DNA of 61,393 nucleotides from a bacterium (GTDB taxonomy: Bacteria > Patescibacteriota > Patescibacteriia > 2-12-FULL-60-25). Location of the stretch: positions 1 to 61,393 of the forward strand of contig JAJZQU010000001.1 of assembly GCA_021806685.1 (NCBI GenBank), given 5' to 3'. Made by a program: the position numbers and the translations under genes. Positions 2,178-60,153 of the stretch are shown here, in pieces. Position 1 is the stretch's first letter; each line of letters starts with the position of its first letter. A model generated the notes under the pieces. That model worked only from the letters and a program-made list of their open reading frames with translations. It did no database searches and was not told the origin of the DNA.

Positions 2178-2186
2178 TGCTATGAT
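2178..2186 (+). promoter_or_regulatory. Extended -10 box TGCTATGAT, 8 nt upstream of the ATG at 2195 (candidate leaderless promoter of the pilus operon)
   Basis: Motif and spacing read directly. There is no SD between the box and the ATG. Confidence 0.4.
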
Positions 2187-2194
2187 TAGGGCAG

Positions 2195-4312
2195 ATGAAT
2201 AGGAGGAAAATTTACATTAAAAAAGCCAAAAAACGTAAGGCGCTTCATGAAATTATGACGCCCGGTTTTTGGCGCGCTCACCACATTGTCCCGGCCTTTA
2301 TTGCGTTAGTTGGTTTAGGCATGGCTTTAGGCGTTGCCCATTTTTCTTCCATGCAGCCTTATAAGGCTAGTGCCGCGGCTGCTGACAATATCCTTGGTTG
2401 GGCCTGGGCTGACACGATCGGCTGGATTTCCCTTAACGACCAAAACCCTTCTTCTTGCGGCTCGCCGCCTTGCGGCACCTATGGCATAAACATGGCTCCG
2501 GCTGCCAGCCTGCAACTGGACGGCAGGCAAGGGCATACTGTCAACGGTTTTGTCTGGTCGGATAACGTTGGGTTTATTTGTTTTGGTACGAGCTGCAATA
2601 TTCCTGCCTGTCGCGGGGCGTTTTTGCCTTCGCCGCCAGGCACTGGTTTTTATGCATATGTTGACCCGGTGACTGACCCTTCGCCCAAAAAAGTCCATGG
2701 TTGGGCAGTTGTTTGTAATGAAAAAGATTTAGGCTGGATTTCTTTGAATTGCGAAGACACGGGAACTTGTACCAACCCTCCAACCCCGCCAGCCTCTTAC
2801 CTTAATTACCGTCTGGTTTACAATCCGCAAGACCATAAATTTTTCGTTAACCCATATGAGGGACAACCGGCCATGTCAAAAGGCGTGCCTTTTGGTTGGA
2901 ACGGTAACAGCGATGGGACTGGTTTTGGGTATATCAGTTTTTATCCCATTTCAGGTTCGGCTGCGGGCATGCATTTGACTGCGCCGGCTGAAAATTGTCT
3001 TTTGGTAGGCGATGAGGATTTAAATGGCTTAGCTGATTGTTCTGACCCGGCCTGTTCGGCCTTGCCGCAATGCAAAGAAATTAATTCAATCAACGGAGGA
3101 TTAACCATCCAAGACAAATACAATGCTTGCCATGACCATGTTGACAATGATGCCAATGGCCAAGCTGATTGTACCGCAGGCAGTGTGCCCGCTTTACCAG
3201 CGGATACTTCGTGTTTAGGGTCAATGGTCTGCCAACTGCAAACTGACGTACCAGGCGGCTGTTCGGACGGCCTGGATAATATCGGCAATGGCTTGATAGA
3301 TTGCGTTGACCCTGCTTGTGCGGCTGATCCGGCCTGTGTAGCCCCACCCATACCTGACCAACCGATTTGTACTGACAACCCAGCTTGTGTTGGTTTAGCC
3401 GGCGAAGCTTTGGCCAATTGCTGTTGCAATGACAATATGACCAACGGCCCCCATCCTTTGGATTGTCTTGATACGAAATGTCAGGCCCAGGCGCCCAAGG
3501 TTTGCTCGGCTTGGTCAAAAGTGGTGACCGGCAATATTTATGCGCAGGGCGGCATATCCGGCACACAAGCGCCTAAAGCTTCCGGCACTAACGTAAAATA
3601 TTGCTTACGTTCCAGCGGCACCATCGAATGGACCAGCGAAGCCAGTTGTAAGGAGGAAGCTGCCGGTACAATCAACTTGCCAACATCCCAGACAAATTAC
3701 CGTAGTAAGCTTGGCTTCTTGGATTTGGCAGGAATTCGCAGCGGGCGCTACGGCGAAGTCGTGACGATAAATACTTCCAATGATCTGCCGGCTAATTTGG
3801 CAGGCAAGATATACCGCTATACTGGCGGCGGCACTTTTAACTTGCTGGCCAAAACATTTGTCAACGGCTCGGCACCCATTAACCGCGGCAACGGATTGTT
3901 GTTTATTGACGGCGGAGACTTAAAAATCATGGGTGATATCCAGTACACGGCCGATCCTGTGCAAAGCAGTTTACGTAACTTGGCGTCGTTCGGGGTGGTT
4001 GCGGTCAAGAACCTGACAGGATCCGGGGGCAATATTGATATTGACCCAGCCGTCCAAAAAGTATCAGGCGCTTATTTTGCAGAAGGGATATTTTCCACAG
4101 GATCCATCAAAACATCCAATCCGGCCTTGTCCGACGTAAACCTCAAGATCTATGGCATCTTGGTCGCTCAACAGTTTAAGCTGCAGCGTAACAACGATAA
4201 TCCTTCAGAGCCGGCCGAAGAAATCATCTTTGACGGTCGGGCCGTAGTTAACCCGCCGCCCGGCATGCAAGATACGAGCAAGTCTTTGCCTCGGCCTGAT
4301 GTGACTTTTTAA
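2195..4312 (+). CDS. Large Cys-rich membrane-anchored/secreted protein with GWAWxxxxGWI repeats; first gene of the pilus operon
   Basis: It has an N-terminal TM helix. Four G-W/F-x-W..G-W/F-I repeats lie at 2390..2947. Repeated C..DG.DN.GNG..DC.DP.C units follow. pilM starts 6 nt after its stop codon. Confidence 0.7.
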   Translation: MNRRKIYIKKAKKRKALHEIMTPGFWRAHHIVPAFIALVGLGMALGVAHFSSMQPYKASAAAADNILGWAWADTIGWISLNDQNPSSCGSPPCGTYGINMAPAASLQLDGRQGHTVNGFVWSDNVGFICFGTSCNIPACRGAFLPSPPGTGFYAYVDPVTDPSPKKVHGWAVVCNEKDLGWISLNCEDTGTCTNPPTPPASYLNYRLVYNPQDHKFFVNPYEGQPAMSKGVPFGWNGNSDGTGFGYISFYPISGSAAGMHLTAPAENCLLVGDEDLNGLADCSDPACSALPQCKEINSINGGLTIQDKYNACHDHVDNDANGQADCTAGSVPALPADTSCLGSMVCQLQTDVPGGCSDGLDNIGNGLIDCVDPACAADPACVAPPIPDQPICTDNPACVGLAGEALANCCCNDNMTNGPHPLDCLDTKCQAQAPKVCSAWSKVVTGNIYAQGGISGTQAPKASGTNVKYCLRSSGTIEWTSEASCKEEAAGTINLPTSQTNYRSKLGFLDLAGIRSGRYGEVVTINTSNDLPANLAGKIYRYTGGGTFNLLAKTFVNGSAPINRGNGLLFIDGGDLKIMGDIQYTADPVQSSLRNLASFGVVAVKNLTGSGGNIDIDPAVQKVSGAYFAEGIFSTGSIKTSNPALSDVNLKIYGILVAQQFKLQRNNDNPSEPAEEIIFDGRAVVNPPPGMQDTSKSLPRPDVTF

Positions 4313-4318
4313 AAATAT

Positions 4319-10939: not shown

Positions 10940-10948
10940 TGCTATAAT
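10940..10948 (+). promoter_or_regulatory. Extended -10 box TGCTATAAT upstream of the major pilin gene
   Basis: Perfect TGnTATAAT. Here it lies 131 nt from the ATG, with the MITE-like element in between. Confidence 0.35.
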
Positions 10949-10980
10949 TATTCACAAGCTAATTTAATAATCTTAAATTG

Positions 10981-11068
10981 TTGTCATCCCGACCGAAATG
11001 TAATGAAGTGGAGGGATCTTGGTTAACGAAGATTCCTCGACTCGCTGCTGCTCCCTCGGAATGACATA
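10981..11068 (-). repeat. MITE-like ~88-bp element with TGTCAT(T/C)CCGA.. terminal inverted repeats (copy a)
   Basis: It is roughly 80% identical by eye to the reverse complement of 21534..21620. The termini match the inverted repeats that flank the GIY-YIG gene at 52511 and 52897. Confidence 0.6.
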
Positions 11069-11079
11069 ACGTACGTTTT

Positions 11080-11592
11080 ATGCAAACCAAGAAAGGTTTT
11101 ACGCTCATTGAGCTCTTGGTGGTTGTGGCCATCATCGGCCTCTTAGCCACCTTGGGCGTTATTGCTTTCCGCGATGCCCAAAGGAAAGCGCGCGACACCA
11201 AGCGTTTGGGCGATGTCAAAATCATGGTCCAGTCATTGGCTCAGGCCAATAACGAGGGATCTTACGTGATTTGCCGGGCTGGTTGCGCCGCTGCCCCGGT
11301 CAGCGGAGACAAGATGTCAGCCTTAACCATCTGCAAGCGTGCAGACTGTGCAGGCGGTGCAGCTGATGATACCAAGGAATTTGCCAACTTAGCCGTCATG
11401 ATTGACCCTCTAAAGCCGGCAGCGGCTTGTGCAGTGGGAAGCGCGGCCCAGTGTGATTATGGTTTTGTGCCTGCTACTACGGCTTATAAGCTGGATGGTT
11501 ATACCATCTACTTCTGGACAGAGCAGACGAACTTGGCTGGTGTTGCTGCCGGCAACTTGCACTCGGCCAATTCAAATGGCGTCATGAACTAG
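11080..11592 (+). CDS. pilA: Major type IV pilin (prepilin)
   Basis: Class III signal MQTKKG|FTLIELLVVVAIIGLLA with Glu at +5, six Cys in the globular part, and its own terminator downstream. Confidence 0.85.
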   Translation: MQTKKGFTLIELLVVVAIIGLLATLGVIAFRDAQRKARDTKRLGDVKIMVQSLAQANNEGSYVICRAGCAAAPVSGDKMSALTICKRADCAGGAADDTKEFANLAVMIDPLKPAAACAVGSAAQCDYGFVPATTAYKLDGYTIYFWTEQTNLAGVAAGNLHSANSNGVMN

Positions 11593-11662: not shown

Positions 11663-11668
11663 TATAAT
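11663..11668 (+). promoter_or_regulatory. -10 hexamer TATAAT, 8 nt upstream of the ATG at 11677
   Basis: Read directly. No SD. Confidence 0.4.
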
Positions 11669-11676
11669 GTCGAAGT

Positions 11677-12141
11677 ATGCGATTTCGCTCAAAATTAGCT
11701 TTTACCATCCCAGAATTGTTGATAGCGCTGCTAATCGTGGGCATCCTGGGCGCTGTGGCTGTCTATGCCATCAATGTCCAGCGTGCCATGAGCCGCGATT
11801 CCAAGCGTATTTCTGATGTCAGTGTCATGCGGGCAGCTTTGAGCCAATACTGGTTGCAAAAGGCATCCTACCCATTATCAGAAGGCGTTAACCTTGGCTT
11901 GATCGGCTCAGGCGCCGAAAGGCTGGCTGGCGACGGGCTTGGTTCTTTGGAGGACAACACACAACCAATATTTTTAGACAGGTTTCCGATTGGCCCCAAA
12001 AGCAACGAGTATTATGCTTATCGGGCTAATGAAAGGGGTTATAGCTTGAGGTTTATTACTGAAAGAAACACTGCTTATGGGCCGGCCGGTACTTTTTTTG
12101 CCCATTCAAGTGGTGTGGACAATCTAGACGAAACAAAATAA
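11677..12141 (+). CDS. Prepilin-like protein (pilin/pseudopilin)
   Basis: N-terminus KLA|FTIPELLIALLIVGILG with Glu at +5. Confidence 0.7.
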   Translation: MRFRSKLAFTIPELLIALLIVGILGAVAVYAINVQRAMSRDSKRISDVSVMRAALSQYWLQKASYPLSEGVNLGLIGSGAERLAGDGLGSLEDNTQPIFLDRFPIGPKSNEYYAYRANERGYSLRFITERNTAYGPAGTFFAHSSGVDNLDETK

Positions 12142-12943: not shown

Positions 12944-13577
12944 TAAAAAAGGTTTTACTTTAGTTGAAGTGATGGTTAGCGTGGCCGTCATCGGGCTTTT
13001 GGCAGTCATCATGATGACGAGCTTGGGTTCTACCCGGCAAACAGAAGAGCTCAAGGCTTCGGCTCGGCAGTTAGCTGCTGATATCCGCAGCATGCAAGCT
13101 CGCGCTTTGGCAGCCGGCGATGTCCAGGCTTGTCCCAATAGTTCCGCGTTACTTTCAATTTGCGAAGATTCAAAAGCCGTCTGTACCAATCCTGCTGATT
13201 GTGTGGCCCATGTGCCATCGGCTTTTGGCGTTAACGCTTCGTCTACCGCCACGTACTACACGCTTTTTGCCGAGGTTGAGCCTTCGACTGCTGATTTCCA
13301 CCTGACCAGGCCAACAGAAGTCTTGCTTAGCCGTCCTTTGCTGCAAGGCACCAGCCAGAATGTGGTTATTAAAAATGTGTTGACCGGCAAGCCAGCTCCT
13401 TTATTGCCTAAAATTGCAGGCGATGTCAGTTTCATGCGCCAAAGCGGCAATACACGGCTAAATGACGGGAGCGGCCTTGAGCCGGATATAATGGTATTCC
13501 GTTTGTGGCACAAGGTTTCGAGCAGTACGATTGATGTTGAGGTCAATCGGGTAACCGGCAGGGTGTCTGTCCTATGA
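12930..13577 (+). CDS. Minor prepilin-like protein
   Basis: MPLHNKKG|FTLVEVMVSVAVIGLLA. The internal ATG at 12930 is used, because ORF-track start 12768 lies inside pilD. Confidence 0.7.
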   Translation: MPLHNKKGFTLVEVMVSVAVIGLLAVIMMTSLGSTRQTEELKASARQLAADIRSMQARALAAGDVQACPNSSALLSICEDSKAVCTNPADCVAHVPSAFGVNASSTATYYTLFAEVEPSTADFHLTRPTEVLLSRPLLQGTSQNVVIKNVLTGKPAPLLPKIAGDVSFMRQSGNTRLNDGSGLEPDIMVFRLWHKVSSSTIDVEVNRVTGRVSVL

Positions 13578-14194
13578 AATTAAAATCAACTAACTGCCCG
13601 GGGCAATCTTTGGTCGAAATGTTGATTGTGCTTTTTGTTATTTCCGTAGGGTTGTATGCGGCTGTCACCATGATTTTTTTTAACGTTAATTTGCAGGAAC
13701 AAGACGCTGACCAGACAGTTGCCATGAATTTGGCGCGCGAGGCGCTGGAGCTTGTGCAAAACCAACGCGATTCCAATTGGTTATCATCCAGCCAGTTTGA
13801 TGCAGGCATGTTAGACCAGCCGGGTGATTGTACTGCCGTGCCGGCCTGGGACGGGACAAGCGTGCCCAATCCTTTTTTTGACTTTACGCCCAATACCATT
13901 GACCAATCCCGTATTTACAAGTCAACGAAATCAGCTTCTTTGGGGATGCTTACTAATATTGTTTCAACTTCCACCTCTGATTTTTATAGGCTTTTGACTT
14001 TTTCACCTATTTGCCAGGACGCGAATGATGCAACCAAAAAAGCGGCGGCTGATGGCTTGTGCGCTTGTCCGCCAACAGGTTTGCCAGCGTATACCAAAGA
14101 AGTCGGCTTGAGGGCAAGGGTAGACATGCGGTGGTATCGGAAGAGCCGGCCGTTGAATTTAACTATTTTCAGTGATTTCTATGATTGGCGCTAA
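13574..14194 (+). CDS. Minor prepilin-like protein
   Basis: NCPG|QSLVEMLIVLFVISVGL with Glu at +5, and an ATGA overlap with the preceding gene. Confidence 0.65.
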   Translation: MKLKSTNCPGQSLVEMLIVLFVISVGLYAAVTMIFFNVNLQEQDADQTVAMNLAREALELVQNQRDSNWLSSSQFDAGMLDQPGDCTAVPAWDGTSVPNPFFDFTPNTIDQSRIYKSTKSASLGMLTNIVSTSTSDFYRLLTFSPICQDANDATKKAAADGLCACPPTGLPAYTKEVGLRARVDMRWYRKSRPLNLTIFSDFYDWR

Positions 14195-14774
14195 GAAAGT
14201 ACCTGGCTTTACAGTTGTCGAGCTTTTGGTCGTCATGGTTTTGTTTACCTTTTCGCTTTTGATTTTAACGCAAACCTACCTTTCTTTTATCCGGCTTTCG
14301 CACCGCACATCAAACTCAGCCACTATCCAGCAGGACATGAGGTTTGTCATGGAATATCTGACGCGTAATGCGCGCAACGGGGCCATTGATTATCCGGATC
14401 CGCCGTTGGCCATTGATAGCGTGACTTCGACGCTTAGGTTGAAGGCAGAGAACCAGCTGGCCTGGATGATGAGGAAATCCCAGCCGGGAGATGCGCGTTG
14501 CGGAGATGCACCTAACGTTGCCTGCCTGCTTGTTTCGAGTGACAACGGCGCAAATTGGGCGCCCATCACATCCAAAGGCGTTAATGTCGAAACATTTAAT
14601 ATTTATGTCAGGCCATCCTTATCGCCCTTTGTCTTGCAAGGGGGGAATTATACGAGTGACCAGCAGCCTTATGTCACTGTCCAAGTAAAAATGACTTTTA
14701 ATACGCCTATTGATAAGGAAAAAGTCAGCCTGGCAGCGCAGACGACCGTATCATCCAGAGTTTATGTACGATAA
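14181..14774 (+). CDS. Minor prepilin-like protein
   Basis: MIGAKKVPG|FTVVELLVVMVLF. The ATG at 14181 is preferred over the GTG at 14172. Confidence 0.7.
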   Translation: MIGAKKVPGFTVVELLVVMVLFTFSLLILTQTYLSFIRLSHRTSNSATIQQDMRFVMEYLTRNARNGAIDYPDPPLAIDSVTSTLRLKAENQLAWMMRKSQPGDARCGDAPNVACLLVSSDNGANWAPITSKGVNVETFNIYVRPSLSPFVLQGGNYTSDQQPYVTVQVKMTFNTPIDKEKVSLAAQTTVSSRVYVR

Positions 14775-15662: not shown

Positions 15663-16025
15663 TCAGTACTTTCTTCCAAAGTGTCTTATAATCTCTGCTA
15701 GCAATAACTCCGGTTCTTTGAAAACCAAATTATTTTCAAACCTTATAACTTTTATTCCAAGTCCGTTCAAAAAAGCAGTCCTTTCTTGATCATAAGCTTG
15801 CGCTTCTTCCGAGTTATGCGCTTGCCCGTCAAGTTCAATGGCTAATCGTTCTGCGGGACAATAGAAGTCTAAAATATAACTGCCAACGCTGTGCTGACGG
15901 CGAAATTTCCTGCCCAGTTTTGAATCTTTAATGAGACTCCAAAGTCCGGCCTCCGCCGGAGTCAATCGATTTCTTAATTCTTTGCGCCGGGTTTTTAGTA
16001 TAGTCCGATTATGCAGTCTTGGCAT
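15663..16025 (-). CDS. DUF559 / Vsr-like endonuclease-domain protein
   Basis: LTPAE..LW, KFRRQ, YILDFYCP and LAIELDG..H match the DUF559 signature. Confidence 0.85.
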   Translation of the reverse strand: MPRLHNRTILKTRRKELRNRLTPAEAGLWSLIKDSKLGRKFRRQHSVGSYILDFYCPAERLAIELDGQAHNSEEAQAYDQERTAFLNGLGIKVIRFENNLVFKEPELLLAEIIRHFGRKY

Positions 16026-16109
16026 GTTGTAAGTATAACATGCGCCTCACCCGTGATTACATAAGCACTCCTCCTTATGCGAAGAGGAAAGTCAAACTGT
16101 TTAACAGCT

Positions 16110-16160: not shown

Positions 16161-16238
16161 AGGGATGGCTACTTTTTAGCTCGCCTGGGCTTGACAGAGC
16201 TGCGAATAAGTGACATAAGTTGGACAAAGGAGGATCAC

Positions 16239-16763
16239 ATGCGTTTCAAGAACCCTGCTGATTTTCTCGGTTGGCTCAACGAGTGCGTAGTCATTCACGT
16301 TGACCCGAAGGGGACGCGATTCGTCGAACGACCTCAGGTCGAAAGGCAAGGCTACGGCCAGCAGTGCATACTTTCGCTTGAGCAACCCAAGCGGCTTGTC
16401 TGGGCCGTCGAGGTCGACAGGATATTGGAAGGGCCGTGCCCGCCGAGGGACTATCAAAGTGTTGACTTGGATAAGTTCCCGATGGGGAAATGCGTCAAGT
16501 ACGCGAACCAGCCAGATGCACCGGATAAATCCTGGTTGCACGAATCTCTCGCATTGGAGGGCATGAAGGACGTCAAGAGAATCCTCGTGTTCGCGGAGTG
16601 CTGCGGCAGCTACAGTCCTGAGTACCAGGCTAGGATTCGTCGGCTCTTTCCTCAGATCGAGTGGATGTTTGTAGAAGTCCGCGATCTTTGCGAAAACTCG
16701 TACAATCATCCGGTTGAAATCGCCGATGACTTCGTAAGAGCCGGCGTACTGCGGATCGAGTGA
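16239..16763 (+). CDS. Hypothetical protein (GC-richer, SD-bearing orphan)
   Basis: AAGGAGG lies 5 nt before the ATG at 16239. Codons are mostly C/G-ending, and the terminator at 16787..16820 follows. No family recognised. Confidence 0.6.
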   Translation: MRFKNPADFLGWLNECVVIHVDPKGTRFVERPQVERQGYGQQCILSLEQPKRLVWAVEVDRILEGPCPPRDYQSVDLDKFPMGKCVKYANQPDAPDKSWLHESLALEGMKDVKRILVFAECCGSYSPEYQARIRRLFPQIEWMFVEVRDLCENSYNHPVEIADDFVRAGVLRIE

Positions 16764-16828: not shown

Positions 16829-16857
16829 ATAAAAAATGCCCGCTTATTCGGCGGGGC
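16829..16857 (-). terminator. Intrinsic terminator of the HAD gene
   Basis: A GCCCGC..GCGGGG hairpin overlaps the stop codon and is followed by a T-run on the minus strand. Confidence 0.5.
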
Positions 16858-17479
16858 AGAAAGAGGCGGCGAAGTGGAGCAGGGAGCGGTAGTGCGGCAC
16901 GTGCGGGGGAAGAGAGCCGGACGGCACACGGAAGTCCGGATCAAAGAGCGCGGCTTGGGCACCGGCGTTCGTAGCGCCACGCACGTCAGCCGGCACGGAA
17001 TCTCCGATGTGCAGCAGTTCGTCCGGCCCGATTCTCGCGAGCTCACAGACGTGTTGGAAGATGCGGGGGTCGGGTTTTTCAAACCCCACCAAGCCGCTAT
17101 CAACCACATGTTCGAAGTACGCTCTGATGCCAGCATCTTTGATGTTCTGTTCAACAGTGCCATTGGCATTACTGAGCACCAACAGACGGAACCCCTTGGC
17201 CCGAAGCGTCTCTAGGCAGGGGATAACACCTGAACCCAGGGTTTTGAACCAGATCAAGCCGCCGGAGAAAAAGGTGGTGACGTCGGGGAGCGGCAAGTTT
17301 TTCAGGACCGTGCTTTTCCCGTTGGTCTTGTTGTAGCGTGTTCTGAGTTCAGCCTCTTTGAGTTGGTCGGCTGTGAAGCTTTGTCCGTAGTACTTCTTCG
17401 CAAGCTGGTTGAACTCGTCAAAATTGGCATAAACCAGCGTGTGTCCGGCATCAAAACTGATCACCCTAGGCCTTTTCAT
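16844..17479 (-). CDS. HAD-superfamily hydrolase (GC-richer, SD-bearing)
   Basis: HAD motifs are ISFDAGHTL (I), LSNANG (II) and HIGDS..D (IV). AGGAGG lies 5 nt before the ATG at 17479. Confidence 0.8.
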   Translation of the reverse strand: MKRPRVISFDAGHTLVYANFDEFNQLAKKYYGQSFTADQLKEAELRTRYNKTNGKSTVLKNLPLPDVTTFFSGGLIWFKTLGSGVIPCLETLRAKGFRLLVLSNANGTVEQNIKDAGIRAYFEHVVDSGLVGFEKPDPRIFQHVCELARIGPDELLHIGDSVPADVRGATNAGAQAALFDPDFRVPSGSLPPHVPHYRSLLHFAASFCPAE

Positions 17480-45312: not shown

Positions 45313-45335
45313 AAAAGAGACGTTCATTGAACGTC
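45311..45335 (-). terminator. Intrinsic terminator of the 46622-45324 orphan operon
   Basis: GACGTTC-ATT-GAACGTC hairpin, followed on the minus strand by TCTTTTTT. Confidence 0.6.
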
Positions 45336-45818
45336 AGGAGGCGGGGGAGGCGGAGGATCTTTTGGTTTTGGTTCGAAGTAATTTTCTAGATCAGCAGCTG
45401 GAATAGAGATGCGGCCTCTGTACAGGGCATGAGCCAGGGTCAGTTGCATGGCCTTTTCGCCGTCCATTTCCTCGCTCAGGTCGGAAATCTCGATTCGACC
45501 TTTGGACAGGTATGTCTCCACATACCTGCACAGGGCAGCTCTCGGGTCATAGTCCTGCCTAAAAAGCCAAGGAACAGGGATGACCAGGTTGGCAAAAGCT
45601 CCTGGAGCGATCAGCTCGGCAAAGATGATGGTTAGATCGTGCTCCTCGCCCGGGTCGTCTTTGCGCAGATGGAGCTGTATTTCCACAGAATCAAGGTTGA
45701 TCTGGGCTTCAACCTTGAAGGCGTAGCCTGGCTTGAGCTCATGGCCCTCGTAAGAGCAGTCGAGGATTGTATTCTGCAGTGGTACGAATTCAGGGAGAGG
45801 GAAGACTGGTCCCTTCAT
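45324..45818 (-). CDS. Hypothetical protein with poly-Pro C-terminus (GC-richer orphan)
   Basis: GAGG lies 7 nt before the ATG. Leu codons are CTG-rich. No family recognised. Confidence 0.55.
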   Translation of the reverse strand: MKGPVFPLPEFVPLQNTILDCSYEGHELKPGYAFKVEAQINLDSVEIQLHLRKDDPGEEHDLTIIFAELIAPGAFANLVIPVPWLFRQDYDPRAALCRYVETYLSKGRIEISDLSEEMDGEKAMQLTLAHALYRGRISIPAADLENYFEPKPKDPPPPPPPDVQ

Positions 45819-45920
45819 GTTATGCCTCGCTTTCTATGTGCTGGCAGGAGCTTAACATAATGGCAAAAGAGGGCAAGAAGAGTCGTTTTATAAAAAAATT
45901 AGCCTTGGCAGTTGCCTTGG

Positions 45921-46870: not shown

Positions 46871-46967
46871 AAAGGTTGCCGCATCAGAGGATGCGGTTAA
46901 GCTGTCCCCATTTTTTTGTCCGCCAAACACGGCGAAGTGCTCAGGCGGATCTGAATAGTGTCTATAT

Positions 46968-47399
46968 ATGTTCATCGGAGAGTATCATTTCACACTTGAC
47001 GATAAGGGGAGGCTTTCCGTTCCTGTCGGCTATCGCACCGCGTTAAATGATGGAGCTGTGGTAACGCGCGGGCTTGACCATACACTGTTTTTATACCCAA
47101 AGGAGCAGTGGAGATCCCTAGCAGCCAAAATAGCTGCTCTGCCGCTTTCAACAGCGGACACCCGCGCTTTTGCCCGCCTCATGTTGGCCGGTGCCATGGA
47201 AGTGGCGATCGATAAGTCAGGACGCATTTGCATTCCTGAGTATTTGCGAACTTACGCAGGACTCAAAAAGCAAATAGTTGTTTCCGGCTTGTACGACCGT
47301 CTGGAAATCTGGGATGAAGGCAACTGGGAGGCATATGTGGCTAAAACCGAAGCCAACGGCGACCAAATTGCCGAAAGGCTTGGACCAATCGGCCTATGA
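46968..47399 (+). CDS. mraZ: Transcriptional regulator MraZ
   Basis: F.G....LD.KGR..VP duplicated SpoVT-AbrB-like halves (LDDKGRLSVP and IDKSGRICIP). Confidence 0.9.
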   Translation: MFIGEYHFTLDDKGRLSVPVGYRTALNDGAVVTRGLDHTLFLYPKEQWRSLAAKIAALPLSTADTRAFARLMLAGAMEVAIDKSGRICIPEYLRTYAGLKKQIVVSGLYDRLEIWDEGNWEAYVAKTEANGDQIAERLGPIGL

Positions 47400-48666: not shown

Positions 48667-48686
48667 AAACGCCATGTTGATTTAAA

Positions 48687-48725
48687 GAATTCCTCCGGCA
48701 GCGCGTTTCCGGGGGAATTTTTTTA
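48687..48725 (+). terminator. Intrinsic terminator after the mraZ-rsmH-ftsL unit
   Basis: GAATTCCTCCGG..CCGGGGGAATT stem, followed by a T-run. Confidence 0.7.
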
Positions 48726-48734
48726 TGCTATTAT
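48726..48734 (+). promoter_or_regulatory. Extended -10 box TGCTATTAT, 9 nt upstream of the ATG at 48744
   Basis: Read directly. No SD. Confidence 0.4.
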
Positions 48735-48743
48735 AGTAACAGT

Positions 48744-49304
48744 ATGCCTGAATTGCATAACCCATTTGATGCCCTGTTGGACCGAATCAATAGGGAAGTT
48801 GATTTTGATGCGCCTGTACGAGAGCGCCAAAGGCAAGCGTCCGAGCTAGAGCGCGGCAGGCATGAGAAGCAAGAGAAGCAAGAGAAGGAAGAGGCTGAAA
48901 AATTCCGACAAGAAGAAGCTGAGAGGCGCAAGCTCTTAGAGAAGCCTTTCAAAATTAATATCACTTATGGTGAACCAGATAAGGAACGGGTATATGTGAT
49001 TTCCGGCGGACATGTAGGCCCACTGACAAATGAAAAATTAGAAAGAAGTTTTTACAGGATGACTGCCAATCGCTTAGCTGCTGGGTTGAGGGAGCGGGGA
49101 TTGGCTTCATGGGAGGTTGTAAGCCACAATACCCAGATTGAAGTATTTCCGTATGAGATAGACAAAAACGATAAAATGATACTTGCCAAACCCCTGCCAG
49201 AGCAAGACTTCTTGCTTAGGGATGCCTTGGCTGAAGCGGTACAATACTACTCCGACTTGTTTAAAGGAGCGGATGTGGCCGAAGCAGTGGAGCGTAAACA
49301 TTAG
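48744..49304 (+). CDS. Hypothetical protein with an E/K-rich segment
   Basis: ORF with a leaderless-type promoter. No family recognised. Confidence 0.55.
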   Translation: MPELHNPFDALLDRINREVDFDAPVRERQRQASELERGRHEKQEKQEKEEAEKFRQEEAERRKLLEKPFKINITYGEPDKERVYVISGGHVGPLTNEKLERSFYRMTANRLAAGLRERGLASWEVVSHNTQIEVFPYEIDKNDKMILAKPLPEQDFLLRDALAEAVQYYSDLFKGADVAEAVERKH

Positions 49305-49327: not shown

Positions 49328-49336
49328 TGCTATAAT
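49328..49336 (+). promoter_or_regulatory. Extended -10 box TGCTATAAT, 8 nt upstream of the ATG at 49345
   Basis: Read directly. No -35 and no SD. Confidence 0.45.
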
Positions 49337-49344
49337 CTTGCAAT

Positions 49345-49740
49345 ATGTTGCAAGGCACGGGGGCGCTCGGGCGGCTGCTGTTAGTTGATTTGATCGGCAG
49401 CGTTGCTTGGTTTCCAATCTGGTGGTACACGACAGGCATCAAAAAGATGATCCAATTTTGCATCGACGGATTGCGTTACCGCGTCCGGCAATATGCTTTT
49501 GCCATTTGGATCAAGAATTTTTTCGTACCAATGTACGGCCAATACGATTGGCAGGGCCGGGCCGTAAGCATCTTCATGCGGTTTGTGGTGATTGTCGGCC
49601 GGGGGATTGCTTTGGTAGCCGAAGCCATCATTTATGTCTTTTTAGTTTTTTGTTGGGCTGTTATCCCGCCATTTGCTTTTATCTTGGCCCTCCAGAACAT
49701 CTTGTCCGGCACTTTTACTTCACGATTGCCAACGCTTTGA
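49345..49740 (+). CDS. Hypothetical multi-TM protein, adjacent to the Clp-like gene
   Basis: Three or four hydrophobic helices. Its stop is 1 nt before the Clp ATG. Confidence 0.55.
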   Translation: MLQGTGALGRLLLVDLIGSVAWFPIWWYTTGIKKMIQFCIDGLRYRVRQYAFAIWIKNFFVPMYGQYDWQGRAVSIFMRFVVIVGRGIALVAEAIIYVFLVFCWAVIPPFAFILALQNILSGTFTSRLPTL

Positions 49741-54548: not shown

Positions 54549-54576
54549 TTGACATATCCAGCTAACCTGCTAGAAT
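54549..54576 (+). promoter_or_regulatory. Sigma70-type promoter TTGACA-N16-TAGAAT for the 54633 orphan
   Basis: Read directly. A ~50-nt leader follows, ending in AAAGGAGAG. Confidence 0.5.
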
Positions 54577-54632
54577 CGTTTTCGCGTTCAGTGAGAAACC
54601 TCGCAAGAGAGTTTGCCTAAAGGAGAGTTGTG

Positions 54633-55349
54633 ATGACGTCGAATTGTGGTGTTAGTCAGGAAACGGTTGATGAAGTCAGAAGAATCAAGAGCCTTGATGA
54701 CGAGTTCGATCAACAGGTAGATACCCTGATCAGGTCAGGTATCCACAGGTGCGTCGAACCTTTGGCAATGGGAGAGCGAGCATTCCGCGAGATGCTCAAC
54801 GAGCTCAAGGACCCTCTGCGTAACATTGAGTTCGCTCCAGGGGACGAATTTCCCAGGTTCCTGATCGTAGTTCCGACTGGTTTGGTTAGCCTGCATAGCC
54901 AATGCCACCTCATAAGTTGGGAAGGTCGAAATGTCAGGACAACCATTTTCGAGAATGAGCTGTCTGTCATTTTCAATGGCAGGCCGCATTGCCTGCCATA
55001 CCTGGCTGCCCAGATAGACATGGGTTGCGATTACCGCCCTCTTTCGACCGACGAGTACTCAACCTACATCAGTGGCACCGGCCAGAGTCCGTTCTATGCC
55101 GAAGAACTCCTCGCGCTCCTGCGCTGCAAGCCACCGGCCATGCTCGAAGGCAAGTTCTTCTGCGCCAATATGCGCCACGGGCCTGACAAGCGCGGCGTGT
55201 ACCTCCAGCTTGGGAAGGACAACTTCCAACTCAATACAGAGGACAAGGACATTGCGGGCCGGGACCACAGGTTCCCGTCTTGTTCCAAACGCCTCTACAT
55301 GACCAGGAAACCGCCTCGCCCCAGTGGCAGTCCGGCTTCCTTTGATTGA
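54633..55349 (+). CDS. Hypothetical protein (GC-richer, SD-bearing orphan)
   Basis: AAGGAGAG lies 5 nt before the ATG at 54633. Codons are C/G-ending. No family recognised. Confidence 0.6.
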   Translation: MTSNCGVSQETVDEVRRIKSLDDEFDQQVDTLIRSGIHRCVEPLAMGERAFREMLNELKDPLRNIEFAPGDEFPRFLIVVPTGLVSLHSQCHLISWEGRNVRTTIFENELSVIFNGRPHCLPYLAAQIDMGCDYRPLSTDEYSTYISGTGQSPFYAEELLALLRCKPPAMLEGKFFCANMRHGPDKRGVYLQLGKDNFQLNTEDKDIAGRDHRFPSCSKRLYMTRKPPRPSGSPASFD

Positions 55350-55397
55350 GGCCTCGGCTCTTAACCGGACTCGGTTTTGAGCCTATTTTTTATTAAT

Positions 55398-55472
55398 AAC
55401 CAAATTCGAATGTCCAATAACCAAAAAATAACCAAATTGGAGCTTTTTTGGACATTGGTAATTAGAGTTTGG
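55398..55472. repeat. CCAAT-heptad imperfect palindromic element, copy 2
   Basis: AACCAAATTCGAATGTCCAATAACCAAAAAA ... TTTTTTGGACATTGGTAATTAGAGTTTGG. The right box matches copy 1 (1682..1704) in 20/23 positions. Confidence 0.6.
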
Positions 55473-55514
55473 ACATTTGACAATCTCGATGAGATTGTTT
55501 ACTATATCGCCACT

Positions 55515-55826
55515 ATGATTGCTGTAATTGCGACCGGCGGTAAACAATACCTGGTCAAAGAAGGAGACAAAATCGAGATCGAAAAGATCAAAGGCGAGAA
55601 AGGCGAAGCCGTGACTTTTGATAAAGTGCTTTTGACTGCCGAAGAGGATGGTTCAAAGCTCAATGTCGGGACGCCTAACCTGTCGACCAAAGTCACAGGA
55701 AAAGTTATGGAACAGGGTCGCCACGACAAGATTGAGGTTGTGCATTACAAGGCCAAGGTGCGCTACAAGAAGCGCCAGGGCCACAGGCAGCCTTTCACGA
55801 GAATTGAAATCACAAAAATCGGGTAA
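55515..55826 (+). CDS. rplU: 50S ribosomal protein L21
   Basis: MIAVIATGGKQYLVKEGD..., 103 aa. The internal ATG at 55515 is used, because ORF-track start 55377 lies in the repeat. Confidence 0.9.
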   Translation: MIAVIATGGKQYLVKEGDKIEIEKIKGEKGEAVTFDKVLLTAEEDGSKLNVGTPNLSTKVTGKVMEQGRHDKIEVVHYKAKVRYKKRQGHRQPFTRIEITKIG

Positions 55827-56439: not shown

Positions 56440-56750
56440 TATTTTTTAGTCATCTCTTGGATATCTTTGGCCAAATCCAAGCCGCCAATATCCTTAAGCT
56501 TGCCTGACAAGAGTTTTTGCAGTTTTTCGGCTGCATCATTACAAGCATCCTTAATCAAATTTTGGAGGTTGGCTTTGTCGGCCAAAGCATCATCTGTCAG
56601 CACCACGTTTGTCACACGTTGGTTGCCGTTCATGTTAATTTTGACTTTGCCCCAGCCGGATGAGCCTTCAACGGTTTCTTTTTCCAAAGTTGTCTGAATC
56701 TGCTTGGCGCGGCTGCGAAGGTCTTGGAATTGCTTGAGTTTGTTGAACAT
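56439..56750 (-). CDS. ybaB: YbaB/EbfC nucleoid-associated protein
   Basis: ~100 aa. GSSGWGKVKINMNGNQRVTNVVL fits the family, and the gene is upstream of recR as in most bacteria. Confidence 0.8.
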   Translation of the reverse strand: MFNKLKQFQDLRSRAKQIQTTLEKETVEGSSGWGKVKINMNGNQRVTNVVLTDDALADKANLQNLIKDACNDAAEKLQKLLSGKLKDIGGLDLAKDIQEMTKK

Positions 56751-56793
56751 ATGCGAACCATGTTACCGATTAGCCGGATAAACGTCAAAAAGT

Positions 56794-56817
56794 AAAAAAA
56801 GAGCCCAGTTACCTGGG
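56794..56817 (-). terminator. Intrinsic terminator of the 57249 orphan gene
   Basis: CCCAG-GTAA-CTGGG hairpin on the minus strand, followed by CTCTTTTTTT. Confidence 0.55.
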
Positions 56818-57249
56818 TAGAGTTTCGTCCTTCTCTTTCTTTGGGAAGACCCTCGTGGCAATGATGAAGATAGCAGCCAATCCCAGGGCGCGGGCTGCTG
56901 GCTGCAACCAATCTCCGGCCGTGTATAGCCGATAGACTAGGCAGGCAACATCTTCCACGAAGTACAAGATGATGATTATGGAGGCCATGGTAATCGACCT
57001 TTTGAGGATGGCTTTCAGCTGCTCTTCCTGTTGCTTTCGGAGCTCCGGATTAGTTGAAAGGTCGAAGTTATACAACCTCAGGAAGATGAAGGTTGCAATT
57101 GCCATAAGGCTGAGCGCCCAACTTAAGTCGCTTGCCAAAGAGTAGTGCCAGCTTTCATGCACTAGAAGCCAGTCCTTGGCGATTGCCAGCACCAATGTGG
57201 AGCCCATGGCGAATTCAAAGAACATCTCAAGAGCCTCAACTCGCTTCAT
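56809..57249 (-). CDS. Hypothetical four-TM membrane protein (SD-bearing orphan)
   Basis: GAGGAGG lies 5 nt before the ATG, and it has its own promoter and terminator. Confidence 0.6.
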   Translation of the reverse strand: MKRVEALEMFFEFAMGSTLVLAIAKDWLLVHESWHYSLASDLSWALSLMAIATFIFLRLYNFDLSTNPELRKQQEEQLKAILKRSITMASIIIILYFVEDVACLVYRLYTAGDWLQPAARALGLAAIFIIATRVFPKKEKDETLPR

Positions 57250-57271
57250 GTCAACCTCCTCTGAGTAAGCA

Positions 57272-57301
57272 ATTCTAAGTACACTTAATCATTAATGTCA
57301 A
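57272..57301 (-). promoter_or_regulatory. Sigma70-type promoter TTGACA-N18-TAGAAT for the 57249 orphan
   Basis: Read on the minus strand. Confidence 0.45.
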
Positions 57302-57331: not shown

Positions 57332-58858
57332 TCAAAACGGCATGCCTGGCGGCGGAGTGTTAGTGATGGGAGTGTTGGGATCAAAATCAATTGGAGGCAG
57401 TTGGGCCGGGCTCATGGGCGGGGCGATGGTCGGCCTGGGTGCGGAAGAGGGGACGGCGGCATGGGCCATGGCCGGTTGCAGACCGGCTGCGCCTTGGGGT
57501 TGCTTGGCCAAGCTGCGGAAGCTGGCGCGTGTCTCGTCGAAAAACAGTTTTACCAAACCAGTTGGACCGTTGCGGTGTTTGGCAATGTGGATTTCTGCCA
57601 AATGCCGTTCATCAGGCGATAAATCTTCCAGTCTATAGTTTTTATCGGCAGCTTTGCGGTAAATGAAAAGTACGATGTCAGCGTCTTGCTCGATTGAACC
57701 TGATTCACGCAAGTGGGAGAGTTTAGGAATGGCTGGCTTGACCAATTCAACAGCGCGCGCAAGCTGGGAAAGGGCCAACACAGGCACTTGGAGTTCACGG
57801 GCAATAGCTTTAAGGCCGCGCGTAATTTCGGCCACTTCCTGCACGCGGTTTTCTGCGCCATTGCTGCCGCGCGATTCCATAAGTTGCAAGTAGTCGATAA
57901 TCACAAAACCCAGGCCGTGTTCCATTTGCAAACGGCGTGCCTTGGTCCTGATTTCCACGATATTAGCTGAAGCTGCATCATCGATATAGATTGGAGCTTC
58001 GGACAATGTGCCAATGGCATGGCCAATGCGCGAAAAATCATCATTTTCGCCTTGGTCAGACAAGCGGCCGGAATGCATTTTCCACAAATCAACGTTAGCC
58101 TCAGCGCAAATCAAGCGGTCAACAACTTGTTCCTTGCTCATTTCCAACGAGAAATAACCAACCGGCACTTTGTGCTTGACTGCCGCGTTGCGCATGAAGT
58201 CGAGCGAAAGCGAAGTTTTGCCGCAAGAAGGGCGGGCAGCCAAAATCACCAAGTCGCTTTTCTGCAAGCCATTGAGCATGTTGTCCAAATCAACAAAGCC
58301 TGTGGCCACGCCGCGCAGCTTGCCTTTTTCACGGTGGATTTCGTCAATGCGCTCAAAAGCCGAATCCAAAATGTTGGTGATGGGGGTAAAAGCCGTTTTC
58401 ACGAACTTTTGCGAAACACCAAAAAGTTTTTGTTCAGCCTGGTCCAAAACAGTTTCAACATCTTCCGATTGCTCAAAGCCCAAAGCAGTGATGTCCTGTG
58501 CTGCATGGATCAAGCGCCTGAGCGTGGCTTTTTTCTGGACAATGCGCGCGTAATTCTGCACGTGGCTCGAAGTGGGCACTGTGTTGGCCAGCTGGATCAA
58601 ATAAGCGCGCCCGCCGATAGCTTCCACCTGTTTTTTTTCTTCCAAGCGATCGGTGACTGATAAGATGTCGATTGGCTCATGCTTGCGGAACAAATCAGAC
58701 ATGGCCTCAAAAATCTCACGGTGTTTGTCAGCGTAAAAATCTTCCGGCGTTACCATGTCACCCACGCGGATAATGGCTTCTTTGTCTATCAGCAAAGCGC
58801 CCAGCAAAGACATTTCTGCATCCAGGTTTTGGGGCACCAGCTTGTCGCTATCTGACAT
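57332..58858 (-). CDS. dnaB: Replicative DNA helicase DnaB with a Pro-rich C-terminal tail
   Basis: PQNLDAEMSLLGALL, Walker A ARPSCGKTS and Walker B VIIDYLQLM. The ATG at 58858 is preferred over the GTG at 58864. Confidence 0.9.
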   Translation of the reverse strand: MSDSDKLVPQNLDAEMSLLGALLIDKEAIIRVGDMVTPEDFYADKHREIFEAMSDLFRKHEPIDILSVTDRLEEKKQVEAIGGRAYLIQLANTVPTSSHVQNYARIVQKKATLRRLIHAAQDITALGFEQSEDVETVLDQAEQKLFGVSQKFVKTAFTPITNILDSAFERIDEIHREKGKLRGVATGFVDLDNMLNGLQKSDLVILAARPSCGKTSLSLDFMRNAAVKHKVPVGYFSLEMSKEQVVDRLICAEANVDLWKMHSGRLSDQGENDDFSRIGHAIGTLSEAPIYIDDAASANIVEIRTKARRLQMEHGLGFVIIDYLQLMESRGSNGAENRVQEVAEITRGLKAIARELQVPVLALSQLARAVELVKPAIPKLSHLRESGSIEQDADIVLFIYRKAADKNYRLEDLSPDERHLAEIHIAKHRNGPTGLVKLFFDETRASFRSLAKQPQGAAGLQPAMAHAAVPSSAPRPTIAPPMSPAQLPPIDFDPNTPITNTPPPGMPF

Positions 58859-58933
58859 ACGCACAGAACTTACAAGCCCGCAGGCAGCAGGGGAAGATGA
58901 TAACGGGTGGCAGACCTGGGGATAACTTTATTT

Positions 58934-59000
58934 CATGTAGCATGTAACACGAAACATGTAACATTGGAATGTAATTTTGCTACATGTTACATGCTACATG
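58934..59000. promoter_or_regulatory. Perfect 16-bp inverted repeat CATGTAGCATGTAACA / TGTTACATGCTACATG with extra ACATGT-type units (candidate operator)
   Basis: The arms are at 58934..58949 and 58985..59000. The right arm abuts the -10 box at 59006. Confidence 0.45.
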
Positions 59001-59005
59001 CTACA

Positions 59006-59014
59006 TGGTATAAT
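59006..59014 (+). promoter_or_regulatory. Extended -10 box TGGTATAAT, 8 nt upstream of the ATG at 59023
   Basis: Read directly. No SD. Confidence 0.45.
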
Positions 59015-59022
59015 TGTGTTAA

Positions 59023-60153
59023 ATGAAACAAAACTCCAAAGTCCTGGACGTTACTTTGAATCTTATCGGGACCATCATAGGGGCTGGAGTTTTTGGATTG
59101 CCTGCAGTCATGGCAAAAACAGGGGTTTTGGGCGGCACGCTCATCTTTTTTGGGATAATGGTTGTGGCTTTGTTGCTGCATTTGTTGTTCGCCCAAGTTG
59201 TTCTGGCTGACAAGACCAAAAGGCGGTTGGCTGGCTATGCCGGCAAGTGGGTTGGCGGATGGGCTTATTGGGCAGCTTTGGTAATCTTTTTCTTCAAATG
59301 CTGCGGCGCCATCTTGGCTTACATTATTTTGGGCGGGGAGTTCATTTCAGCCATTGCCCACGGCCTTGGCTTGTTTGACGTTGTTTGGGTTTGGCAGTTG
59401 GTCTTTTGGGCAGTTGGGGCAGTCATCGTTTTCTTTGGCTTGAAGATCGTAACTCATGTCGAGGATGACCTGACTTGGTTGCTGGTCGGCGCCATGCTTT
59501 TTTCCGGCGTTGTCCTTGTACCGTTTTTTGATTGGCATGGCCTAAGCACATTGAATGCCATGAACTTTTGGCAAGCCTTGGGTGTCATGTTCTTTGCCGT
59601 GACTGCCATGACAGTCATCCCTGAGGCGGTTGATATTGCCGGGCGGAACGCTAGCACATCGCAGCGAGGGATTATCTGGGGCACGGTTATAGCAGGCGTG
59701 ATCTCTTGGATTTTTGGGTTGAGCATTGCTTTGGCTTATCCGGGTGTCCAAGCCGCGGCTGATATTTCGTTGGCTTTCCCGCCGATTTTCTGGTGGCTCA
59801 TCCCGACAGTTGGCGTCTTGGCCGTTGTCACTTCTTATTTGACTGTTACCCAAGCCCTGAAGAACCTTTTGAGCCTTGATGTCGGTTTAAAGCCAGTTTG
59901 GTCTTGGATCGTGGCAGTTGCCGTGCCTTTGGGATTTTTCGCAATCACTGCCCGCAATTTTTTAAACACGATTGGCTTTGTTGGCGGAGTGCTGACCGGC
60001 TTGTCGGGCTTGATAGTTTGCCTTTGCGCTTGGCAAGTCATGCGCCGTAAGGGGGTGCGCATCAACTGGGTTTGGAAATGGCTGCCTTTGCCTTTAGGTT
60101 TGGTCCTCTTGGCCATTGTTTTGCAGGAGCTTATGACATATGTCAAAATATAA
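59023..60153 (+). CDS. Amino-acid permease-like transporter (Trp/Tyr-permease / Aa_trans-like)
   Basis: The N-terminal LIGTIIGAGVFGLPAVMAKTG motif and ~11 TM helices. Confidence 0.6.
   Translation: MKQNSKVLDVTLNLIGTIIGAGVFGLPAVMAKTGVLGGTLIFFGIMVVALLLHLLFAQVVLADKTKRRLAGYAGKWVGGWAYWAALVIFFFKCCGAILAYIILGGEFISAIAHGLGLFDVVWVWQLVFWAVGAVIVFFGLKIVTHVEDDLTWLLVGAMLFSGVVLVPFFDWHGLSTLNAMNFWQALGVMFFAVTAMTVIPEAVDIAGRNASTSQRGIIWGTVIAGVISWIFGLSIALAYPGVQAAADISLAFPPIFWWLIPTVGVLAVVTSYLTVTQALKNLLSLDVGLKPVWSWIVAVAVPLGFFAITARNFLNTIGFVGGVLTGLSGLIVCLCAWQVMRRKGVRINWVWKWLPLPLGLVLLAIVLQELMTYVKI

Follow-up and report, generated by a model that had tools for sequence, protein, structure and literature searches.

How translation is initiated in a compact genome in which promoter boxes lie almost against the start codons is the question raised by the 61,393-bp stretch of DNA analyzed here (contig JAJZQU010000001.1; hereafter the window), a bacterial chromosomal contig with a GC content of 48.6%. 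A LigA scan of a genome collection returned as top relatives metagenome-assembled genomes (MAGs) labeled "Patescibacteria group" at 96, 85, 82, and 78% identity, with remoter relatives labeled Candidatus Uhrbacteria, Parcubacteria, Paceibacterota, or Minisyncoccia, and because the LigA relatives are Patescibacteria, the organism is assigned to the ultra-small bacteria of the Candidate Phyla Radiation (CPR). The original prediction held that extended -10 boxes sit at a nearly fixed 6 to 9 nucleotides (nt) from the ATG of many genes in this window, with neither a -35 element nor a Shine-Dalgarno sequence (SD), and that leaderless initiation is the default. From the position of the boxes, the first cistrons of about half of the transcription units are probably carried on leaderless or near-leaderless mRNAs, that is, with leaders of 0 to 3 nt.

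The position of the boxes is clearly nonrandom. All nine of those cited in the original prediction are present with the spacings it gave, including the plain hexamers TATAAT at 11663 and TATCAT at 17513, each 8 nt from an ATG, and further sites of the same type were found at 16040 and 33107 (both on the reverse strand) and upstream of gatC (21651), rplU (55500), and ybaB (56765, reverse strand). In an annotation-free scan, TGnTAnnnT was sought on both strands, and its distance was taken to any ATG opening an open reading frame (ORF) of at least 80 codons; 9 matches fell at 6 to 9 nt compared with 2.6 expected from other offsets (P=0.0016), and TATnAT gave a peak at the same distance. The sequence TGNTATNAT occurs 15 times in the window, against 6.3 +/- 2.5 in shuffles, and 6 of the 15 copies lie 6 to 9 nt upstream of a gene-start ATG. 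After curation of the starts, TAnnnT stood at this distance before 17 of 33 operon-leading genes, whereas shuffled upstream regions give 3.4 +/- 1.7, and other 4-nt offset windows of the same upstream regions hold 0 to 7 matches. With automatic gene calls and a distance of 6 to 10 nt, the hexamer precedes 13 of 30 leading genes but only 2 of 27 internal genes (Fisher P=0.0025). The modal spacing between box and ATG is 8 nt in the window and 6 to 9 nt in relatives. A scan of anti-SD duplex free energy found no SD in any gap between the cited boxes and their ATGs, as the original prediction had stated, with values of -3 kcal/mol or weaker in these gaps and -4.8 kcal/mol at the first UvrC ATG (39697). 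A box 6 to 9 nt from the AUG leaves no room for an SD, which points to leaderless or near-leaderless mRNAs.

The boxes also have the composition of sigma-70 promoters. All 136 TAnnnT sites of the window and 29 related loci that have an ORF-opening ATG 6 to 9 nt downstream were aligned, with no other selection. TG occupied the extended -10 position in 32% of the sites, compared with 6.3% of all other TAnnnT sites. The stretch just 5' of the TG is T-rich, and positions -23 to -21 from the hexamer are T in 50%, T in 38%, and G in 40% of the sites, corresponding to a -35 TTG at 17 bp. The TG extension and the -35 TTG indicate that the boxes are promoters and not ribosome-binding sites (RBSs), as these elements matter to RNA polymerase and not to ribosomes. 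In the window, 11 of 20 promoters have TG at -15/-14, one base 5' of TAnnnT; these TGn promoters mostly lack a -35 element (weak or absent at 2178, 43776, 48726, and 49328), whereas the promoters without TGn have TTGnnn at 17 to 18 bp, a trade-off that is classical compensation. Four of the seven extended boxes originally cited have no more than three of six matches to TTGACA; the other three, at 39688, 19746, and 59006, have TTGACC, TTGAGC, and GTTACA, and at least four of six matches occur in 9 of the 20 window promoters, against 17% by chance. Thus, the claimed lack of a -35 element stands for most TGn promoters but fails overall, given the TTG at 17 bp in the population and several promoters with five or six matches. 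A terminator-like hairpin with a T-run (2157-2177) abuts the box at 2178, and a 15-bp terminator hairpin with a U-run (48684-48725) abuts that at 48726. The idea that the T-runs before TGn are terminator U-tracts holds for these two but not for those at 19738 and 49322 (two of the four tested), and no overall enrichment of terminator-like sites was found.

Mapped bacterial transcription start sites (TSSs) center 7 bp after the -10 element and prefer purines in a compilation of 49 bacteria, in which the 188 reused TSSs of TM7x show a more variable -10-to-TSS distance (PMC12641261). In the window, 17 of 20 promoters have a purine as the seventh nt past the hexamer, and in those with 6-nt spacers (uvrC, mraZ, and the genes at 43791 and 16025), this purine is the A of the AUG. 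The housekeeping transcription units have sigma-70-type promoters, consisting of an extended -10 or of a -35 TTGnnn with TAnnnT, whose hexamer ends 6 to 9 nt before the AUG of the first cistron. Under the mechanism that we propose, transcription starting at a purine about 7 nt past the hexamer would set the 5' end on the A of the AUG where the spacer is 6 nt. With spacers of 8 to 9 nt, a start at +7 or +8 would leave a leader of 1 to 3 nt; a start at +9 or +10 would instead fall on the A. The first cistron would then be translated by the leaderless route, in which a ribosome with initiator tRNA binds the 5'-terminal AUG, and downstream cistrons would be reached by termination-reinitiation from the preceding stop codon. 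A minority of about 7 to 8 of 62 genes would follow the classical route, with -35 and -10 elements, a leader of tens of nt, and GGAGG 5 to 9 nt before the start. A pyrimidine at -1 of the ATG was considered as a mark of the TSS and set aside as uninformative, as inspection by eye showed it to be frequent before internal genes too.

The same arrangement recurs in the rest of the genome and across the lineage. In held-out flanks of the same genome (~18 kb, independent gene calls), TAnnnT was present 6 to 9 nt before the called ATG in 7 of 20 genes, compared with about 2 expected; the genes with a box include those for a SpoU methylase (TTGTCA-17-TAGCAT-8-ATG), LepA, FolD, and MurC, and the flank SecA gene reads TTGACT-18-TAAGAT-9-ATG. 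Around LigA in 33 loci, which include three non-CPR MAGs, the annotation-free scan gave 17, 16, 10, and 9 TGnTAnnnT-to-ATG matches at offsets 6, 7, 8, and 9 over a background of about 3 per offset, a total of 52 against 12 expected (P~1e-17). Among 221 leading genes from 29 Patescibacteria loci, the extended -10 was found 9, 6, 6, and 4 times at the same offsets, against about 0.4 per offset. The enrichment at 6 to 9 nt that the original prediction had named as a genome-wide check was therefore present in the window, in the flanks, and in 29 related genomes. Planctomycetia and Omnitrophota loci, examined as a control, showed no peak, and in 100 kb of Escherichia coli K-12, the -10 motifs were flat and the expected GGAG/GAGG peak was present 5 to 10 nt before ATGs. 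The peak is confined to ATG, with 60 instances at offsets 6 to 9 after TGnTAnnnT compared with 7 for GTG, 7 for TTG, and 3 for the control codon CTG.

Individual promoters are likewise conserved. For gatC, 17 of 18 relatives keep TAnnnT at 7 to 10 nt from the conserved Met, often together with the -35 element (TTGGAC or TTGAAC); for ligA, 20 of 30 relatives have TAnnnT at 6 to 10 nt from the conserved Met; and TATAAT or TATACT lies 7 to 12 nt before the ATG in 10 of 13 minor pilin orthologues. The ABC transporter orthologues in the closest relative (locus L001, LigA 96% identical) and in loci L002 and L003 have TGnTATnAT 7 to 8 nt before the ATG, and for rplU and ybaB, the -35, the -10, and the 9-nt spacer are kept in two further relatives (loci L037 and L038), the ybaB promoter of L037 reading TTGACG-17-TAATCT-9-ATG. 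Nucleotide homology between the window and L001 is lost in intergenic DNA and returns at the core promoters, restarting 6 nt before the ligA hexamer, 5 nt before the TGG of the ABC transporter promoter, and at the -35 element of gatC. In relatives, some closely spaced "internal" genes carry the motif as well, with embedded TGn promoters.

Several of the start codons on which the spacings depend are supported by the proteins themselves. Prepilin leaders fix the ATGs at 11080 and 11677, the minor pilin leader being MRFRSKLA|FTIPE; the N-termini of LigA and GatC are conserved among relatives; and the Pfam domains of YbaB and RNase H begin at or near residue 1. For bL21, the database call of 138 amino acids (55410-55826) starts at 55410, 35 codons upstream of the ATG at 55515, whereas the L21p Pfam domain begins exactly at residue 36 of this call, that is, at ATG 55515, and the protein is called at 103 amino acids in two relatives (L037 and L038). 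The position of the domain and the calls in relatives make ATG 55515 the likely true start of rplU, giving a bL21 of 103 amino acids. A look-up of this product for transcript contigs beginning at the TSS gave no record. For the serine hydroxymethyltransferase (SHMT) gene of the right flank (reverse strand, 13080-14381 of locus L034, which covers this flank), the probable start (MILQQTDPQM...) lies 9 codons before the called one and 10 nt past TAAGAT.

The window carries genes for RecJ, LigA, an ABC transporter, GatCA, a DsbA-like protein, UvrA, UvrC, MraZ-RsmH, a ClpB-like ATPase, bL21, YbaB-RecR, and DnaB, a type IV pilus operon encoding PilM, a PilB-like ATPase, PilC, a prepilin peptidase, and pilins, and one tRNA-Ser; rRNA genes are absent from the window, and no 16S gene was present in any fetched locus. 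On the forward strand, the first gene of the pilus operon (2195-4312) is preceded by TGCTATGAT, 8 nt from its ATG (2178-2197), and the minor pilin gene (11677-12141), whose start is set by the prepilin leader, by TATAAT at 8 nt (11663-11679). The same 8-nt spacing follows TATCAT at ligA (17527-19599; promoter and ATG at 17513-17529) and, behind a run of eight Ts, TGGTATCAT at the ABC transporter gene (19763-21523; 19746-19765). The gatCA operon has a -35 TTGGAC, 18 nt, TAAACT (21651), and 9 nt before the gatC ATG at 21666 (21627-21668). At uvrC (39669-39705), a -35 TTGACC is followed after 16 nt by TGGTACCAT (39688), which lies 6 nt before the second ATG (39703) and is abutted by another ATG at 39697. 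The box TGCTATAAT stands 6 nt before the ATG at 43791 (43776-43793), inside the last codons of an upstream gene that ends at 43783, and again 8 nt before the ATG at 49345 (49328-49347). The mraZ gene, which heads an mraZ-rsmH-ftsL-like operon, has a weak TAGTGT 6 nt from its ATG (46956-46970), and the gene at ATG 48744 has TGCTATTAT at 9 nt (48726-48746), the box abutted by the terminator hairpin described above. The promoter of rplU consists of TTGACA, 17 nt, TACTAT (55500), and 9 nt before ATG 55515 (55477-55517). Finally, TGGTATAAT lies 8 nt before ATG 59023 of an amino acid permease gene of the Trp/Tyr-permease family (59006-59025); three to four direct repeats of CTACATG (58978-59005) lie immediately 5' of this promoter and are a possible operator. 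On the reverse strand, TGTTATACT lies 6 nt from ATG 16025 of a DUF559 endonuclease-like gene (16023-16040), TGTTAAGCT 8 nt from ATG 33090 of a CrtC/lipocalin-like gene (33088-33107), and a weak TAAGTT 8 nt from ATG 58858 of dnaB (58856-58872), and ybaB-recR (56748-56788) has TTGACG, 17 nt, TAACAT (56765), and 9 nt before ATG 56750. The weak boxes in this set (TAAAGT at 24683, TAGTGT at 46956, TAAGTT at 58872, and TAACGT at 11067) may individually be chance matches.

Genes inside operons are arranged differently. The ATGA overlaps at 7206, 7601, 13574, 47396, and 48328 and the TAATG at 56439 (reverse strand), which joins ybaB and recR, are present as originally described, and a sixth ATGA occurs at 40989. 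All 27 internal junctions have gaps of -16 to +9 nt with A/T-rich spacers, and no properly spaced SD precedes any of these 27 genes. Such SD-less overlaps and short gaps fit termination-reinitiation coupling. Overlapping or closely spaced cistrons are reportedly coupled translationally by termination-reinitiation in other organisms. The window shares with these systems the ATGA/TAATG overlaps and gaps of no more than 9 nt without SD; the difference is that termination-reinitiation would here seemingly be the general rule for internal genes, as judged from sequence alone, while elsewhere it is one option among several.

A small set of genes does have an SD at proper spacing (about 7 to 8 of 62, or ~11-13%), and the GGAGG-to-ATG histogram has a small, sharp peak at 5 nt. 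These are the genes starting at 16239, 17479 (reverse), 36685 (reverse), 45818 (reverse), 54633, 57249 (reverse), and 60759, probably also 46622 (reverse), and two more in the right flank (L034 14966-15499 and 18866-19312). The coexistence of SD-bearing orphan genes with the boxes, as claimed in the original prediction, is thus borne out, with members that are ORFan-like: most have no Pfam match and are ORFans or poorly annotated, narrow-lineage genes, the gene at 16239 having 3 homologues among 5.8 billion proteins and another SD-led gene having 6. Where the upstream region is readable, they have a canonical -35/-10 promoter and a real leader. The DUF5701-like gene (54633-55349, third-position GC content [GC3] of 0.64) is preceded by TTGACA, 16 nt, TGCTAGAAT, a leader of about 50 nt, AGGAG, and 7 nt before ATG 54633 (54549-54635), and the reverse-strand ORFan 56809-57249 by TTGACA, 18 nt, TAGAAT, a leader, GAGGAGG, and 5 nt before ATG 57249 (57247-57301). 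GGAGG lies 5 nt from the ATG of the forward ORFan 16239-16763 (16229-16241) and, on the reverse strand, of the gene for a haloacid dehalogenase (HAD) family hydrolase (16844-17479; 17477-17489) and the ORFan 36338-36685 (36683-36695); the reverse ORFan 45324-45818 has GAGG at 6 nt (45816-45828), and the forward gene 60759-61217 (GC3 of 0.75) has GGAGG at 7 nt (60747-60761).

The SD-led genes are also set apart by composition, with GC3 values of 0.57 to 0.75 (mean of 0.67) compared with 0.52 for the backbone (Mann-Whitney P=5e-5), and the two in the flank have the highest GC3 of 18 flank genes. The DUF5701-like gene has syntenic orthologues in L037 and L038 that keep the promoter, the leader, and the AGGAG and also have raised GC3; the conservation of the SD in these leaders indicates that the SD regime is stable in the lineage. 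Together with the spacing of GGAGG/AGGAG, it also suggests that the organism probably retains a canonical anti-SD. BLASTP found no matches among the SD-led genes, so they are not mutual paralogues, and very recent import is partly ruled out by the synteny and conserved promoter, leader, and SD of the DUF5701 gene in two relatives. For the gene at 16239, which is absent from L001-L004, recent import is plausible, and the high GC3 of the set may reflect old horizontal transfer or a special gene class.

Gene content varies at several places in the window. The segment 15577-17526, corresponding to 2800-4636 in L001, is a variable island between the pilus operon and ligA, in which the DUF559 gene and the ORFan at 16239 are absent from L001 and the HAD gene is 54% identical there, compared with 96% for the neighboring LigA. 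At 33191-35326, the tRNA-Ser(GGA) gene is followed by a low-GC block (28% GC for the gene at 34544-35326 and 43 to 44% for genes in 33357-34534) that looks like an island inserted beside a tRNA gene. The reverse-strand region 26322-33090, which encodes a 1,196-amino-acid protein with a C-terminal Peptidase_S74 (endosialidase-chaperone, tail-fibre-like) domain and a 651-amino-acid neighbor, is arranged differently from L001, in which the homologue of 26320-28180 directly adjoins the CrtC-like gene (32005-33090); the Peptidase_S74 gene looks like a strain-specific insertion. An AT-rich element of ~95 nt is present in two copies, at 1596-1712 (after recJ, before rnhA) and 55385-55476 (after the DUF5701 gene, before rplU), with CCAA-type repeats on its left and TTGG-type repeats on its right, each copy folding into a long, imperfect hairpin (z = -3.5 and -5.2); a search of the other loci found none. 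Among the relatives, the TPA_asm MAGs L004, L005, L007, L008, L010, and L012 are titled "uncultured Gammaproteobacteria", and L017 and L022 "Saccharibacteria"; these labels look wrong, as their LigA and synteny are typical of Uhrbacteria-like Patescibacteria.

Several points weigh against leaderless initiation as an account of the boxes. The start sites are inferred from promoter geometry, and leaderless translation and reinitiation are likewise predictions. Spacings in the window have their mode at 8 nt, not at the 6 to 7 nt of strictly leaderless genes, so many leaders would be 1 to 3 nt long; what stands of the original prediction is thus the fixed position of a sigma-70 box, an accepted computational signature of leaderless genes, rather than leaderlessness in the strict sense. 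For the 18-kb held-out flanks taken by themselves, the crude motif histogram gives a weak signal. About one-third of the leading genes fall in neither the box-led nor the SD-led class (e.g., uvrA at 36823, rnhA at 1722, and the genes at 33357 and 35393). In addition, many units are co-oriented with gaps of 40 to 160 nt and clear terminators at only two, and read-through transcripts in which these AUGs are internal likely also occur. Finally, two SD-less genes with strong extended -10 boxes have leaders. The major pilin gene (10940-11082) has a perfect TGCTATAAT at 10940, then TTATTCACA and a leader of about 131 nt before ATG 11080, with a weak TAACGT (11067) 7 nt before this ATG, and its orthologues mostly lack a proximal -10; the gene at 25467 (25433-25469) has TGATAAAAT, TTATCCACA, and a 25-nt SD-less leader, conserved in L001 and L002. 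Since both of these boxes (10940 and 25433) drive leadered genes that have no SD, there must also be a further route that does not depend on an SD.

Directly 3' of the -10 in both leadered promoters (10948-10956 and 25441-25449) lies a DnaA-box-like TTATCCACA, in the form TTATTCACA at 10948. It is found at the same place in promoters of orthologues of the pilin gene or gene 25467 (L001 12803, L002 12614, L014 3625, L022 114 on the reverse strand, L019 6379, and L009 166). As a globally enriched motif, it was rejected (16 copies in the window against 12 expected); possible roles are those of a site for a regulator or of a start/leader motif in leadered genes without an SD.

The alternative that survives best, although we consider it improbable, is that the promoters are real but secondary, with most expression coming from longer transcripts that arise by read-through or by initiation farther upstream. 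The AUGs would then lie within the mRNA and be translated without an SD, by an A/U-rich, S1-type, or coupling mechanism, the closeness of box and AUG being a product of genome compaction and not of selection for leaderless mRNAs. It fits a genome that is very compact, with promoters lying inside the coding ends of upstream genes (43776 and many in relatives), with intergenic gaps of 40 to 160 nt, with hairpins at two of four T-runs and terminator-like sites that are not enriched overall, and with internal genes and the leadered genes at 11080 and 25467 that are evidently translated without an SD. However, compaction predicts neither the sharp peak at 6 to 9 nt nor its restriction to ATG, and it does not predict that the arrangement should be conserved in orthologues amid diverging intergenic sequence.

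A second alternative, and a decidedly unlikely one, is that TAnnnT is a non-SD translation signal on leadered mRNAs, such as an RBS resembling that of GeneMarkS-2 "group B" or the partner of an altered 16S tail. Some Parcubacteria do lack a CCUCC anti-SD (PMC9297842), and the motif precedes the closely spaced "internal" genes in relatives mentioned above. Nevertheless, a translation signal does not account for TG at 32% versus 6.3% of sites and the -35 TTG at 17 bp, the motif is nearly absent before internal genes of the window (2 of 27), the "internal" cases in relatives carry TGn, and GGAGG/AGGAG at the correct spacing, including in three orthologous DUF5701 leaders, argues that a canonical anti-SD is kept. 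Chance in AT-rich intergenic DNA, to which a TAnnnT about every 55 nt, the weakness of some listed boxes, and the inflation of counts before internal genes by TAA/TAG stop codons would contribute, has a negligible claim and is refuted for the set as a whole by the excess of leading genes over shuffled upstream regions, the low counts in other offset windows, and a strict histogram that is significant in the window and in related loci but flat in E. coli.

Leaderless initiation of first cistrons thus remains the favored explanation, and its closest known counterpart is the GeneMarkS-2 group C pattern, in which a -10 box lies at a fixed 6 to 8 nt before first-in-operon starts, alongside SD-led genes (Lomsadze et al. 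2018, PMC6028130). Group C comprises 90% of the Actinobacteria and 97% of the Deinococcus-Thermus surveyed, with support from differential RNA sequencing in Mycobacterium and Deinococcus, and 25 to 50% of its transcripts are predicted to be leaderless (PMC6028130). The original prediction had regarded a dual regime within one genome as unusual; leaderless first cistrons together with SD-led genes are in fact this known pattern (PMC6028130). The window shares with group C organisms (e.g., Mycobacterium, Streptomyces, and Deinococcus-Thermus) a Pribnow box at a fixed short distance, an SD-less gap, and SD-led genes alongside, and the share involved, about half of the operon-leading genes, is comparable. 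It differs in belonging to another phylum, in a broader and slightly longer spacing, and in the frequent TGn extension. In addition, RBS use is described for the operon-internal genes of group C genomes (PMC6028130), whereas here such genes too lack an SD, which lowers the case for strict group C membership but not that for the leaderless mechanism. As extended -10 sigma-70 promoters, the boxes themselves are ordinary, with TG one base 5' of TAnnnT and a -35 that is weak or absent in most TGn cases; what is unusual is their fixed position relative to the AUG, and a T-run often precedes the TG.

The results can also be set against what is known of translation in Parcubacteria, where the anti-SD CCUCCU was detected in only 48% of 16S genes, bS21 is frequently missing, and bS1 is reduced in length (Tsurumaki et al. 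2022, PMC9297842). The organism studied here shares with the SD-poor Parcubacteria the broad lineage and a near absence of SDs before backbone genes, but it differs from those that lack the anti-SD in that it probably keeps a working one, with a perfect GGAGG 5 to 7 nt before a minority of genes. Leaderless mRNAs and promoter positions are not discussed in that study, the main text of which has no word beginning with "leader" (PMC9297842), and the names Candidatus, Parcubacteria, and Saccharibacteria do not occur in the main text of the survey of ~5,000 species that defined group C (PMC6028130). A literature search found no paper linking leaderless mRNAs to CPR/Patescibacteria beyond incidental mentions. 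The finding is therefore a new phylum-level lineage of the known leaderless-rich type, with two twists, namely, the SD-less internal genes and a small, ORFan-like, compositionally distinct SD-led set.

If confirmed, these results would have practical implications, as standard gene callers would be expected to misplace starts, with bL21 called 35 codons too long and SHMT probably 9 codons too short. The minimal TGnTAnnAT-N6-8-ATG cassette may likewise be a natural expression module for the genetics of cultivable Patescibacteria, a field that is just starting. To our knowledge, uL30 is absent from all CPR genomes. A deep, genome-reduced lineage with trimmed ribosomes would join the Actinobacteria, Deinococcus-Thermus, and archaea as a heavy user of leaderless mRNAs. 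More tentatively, and with considerable doubt, it is possible that Parcubacteria-type Patescibacteria as a group have a nearly SD-free system of leaderless first cistrons and reinitiation-coupled downstream cistrons, in which SDs, canonical promoters, and leaders would serve only a small set of high-GC3 ORFans. If so, two physically separate expression regimes would exist in one tiny genome, and this might represent a step towards the complete loss of the anti-SD seen in sister lineages or a means for the differential expression of accessory or regulated genes, for example via the state of the ribosome.

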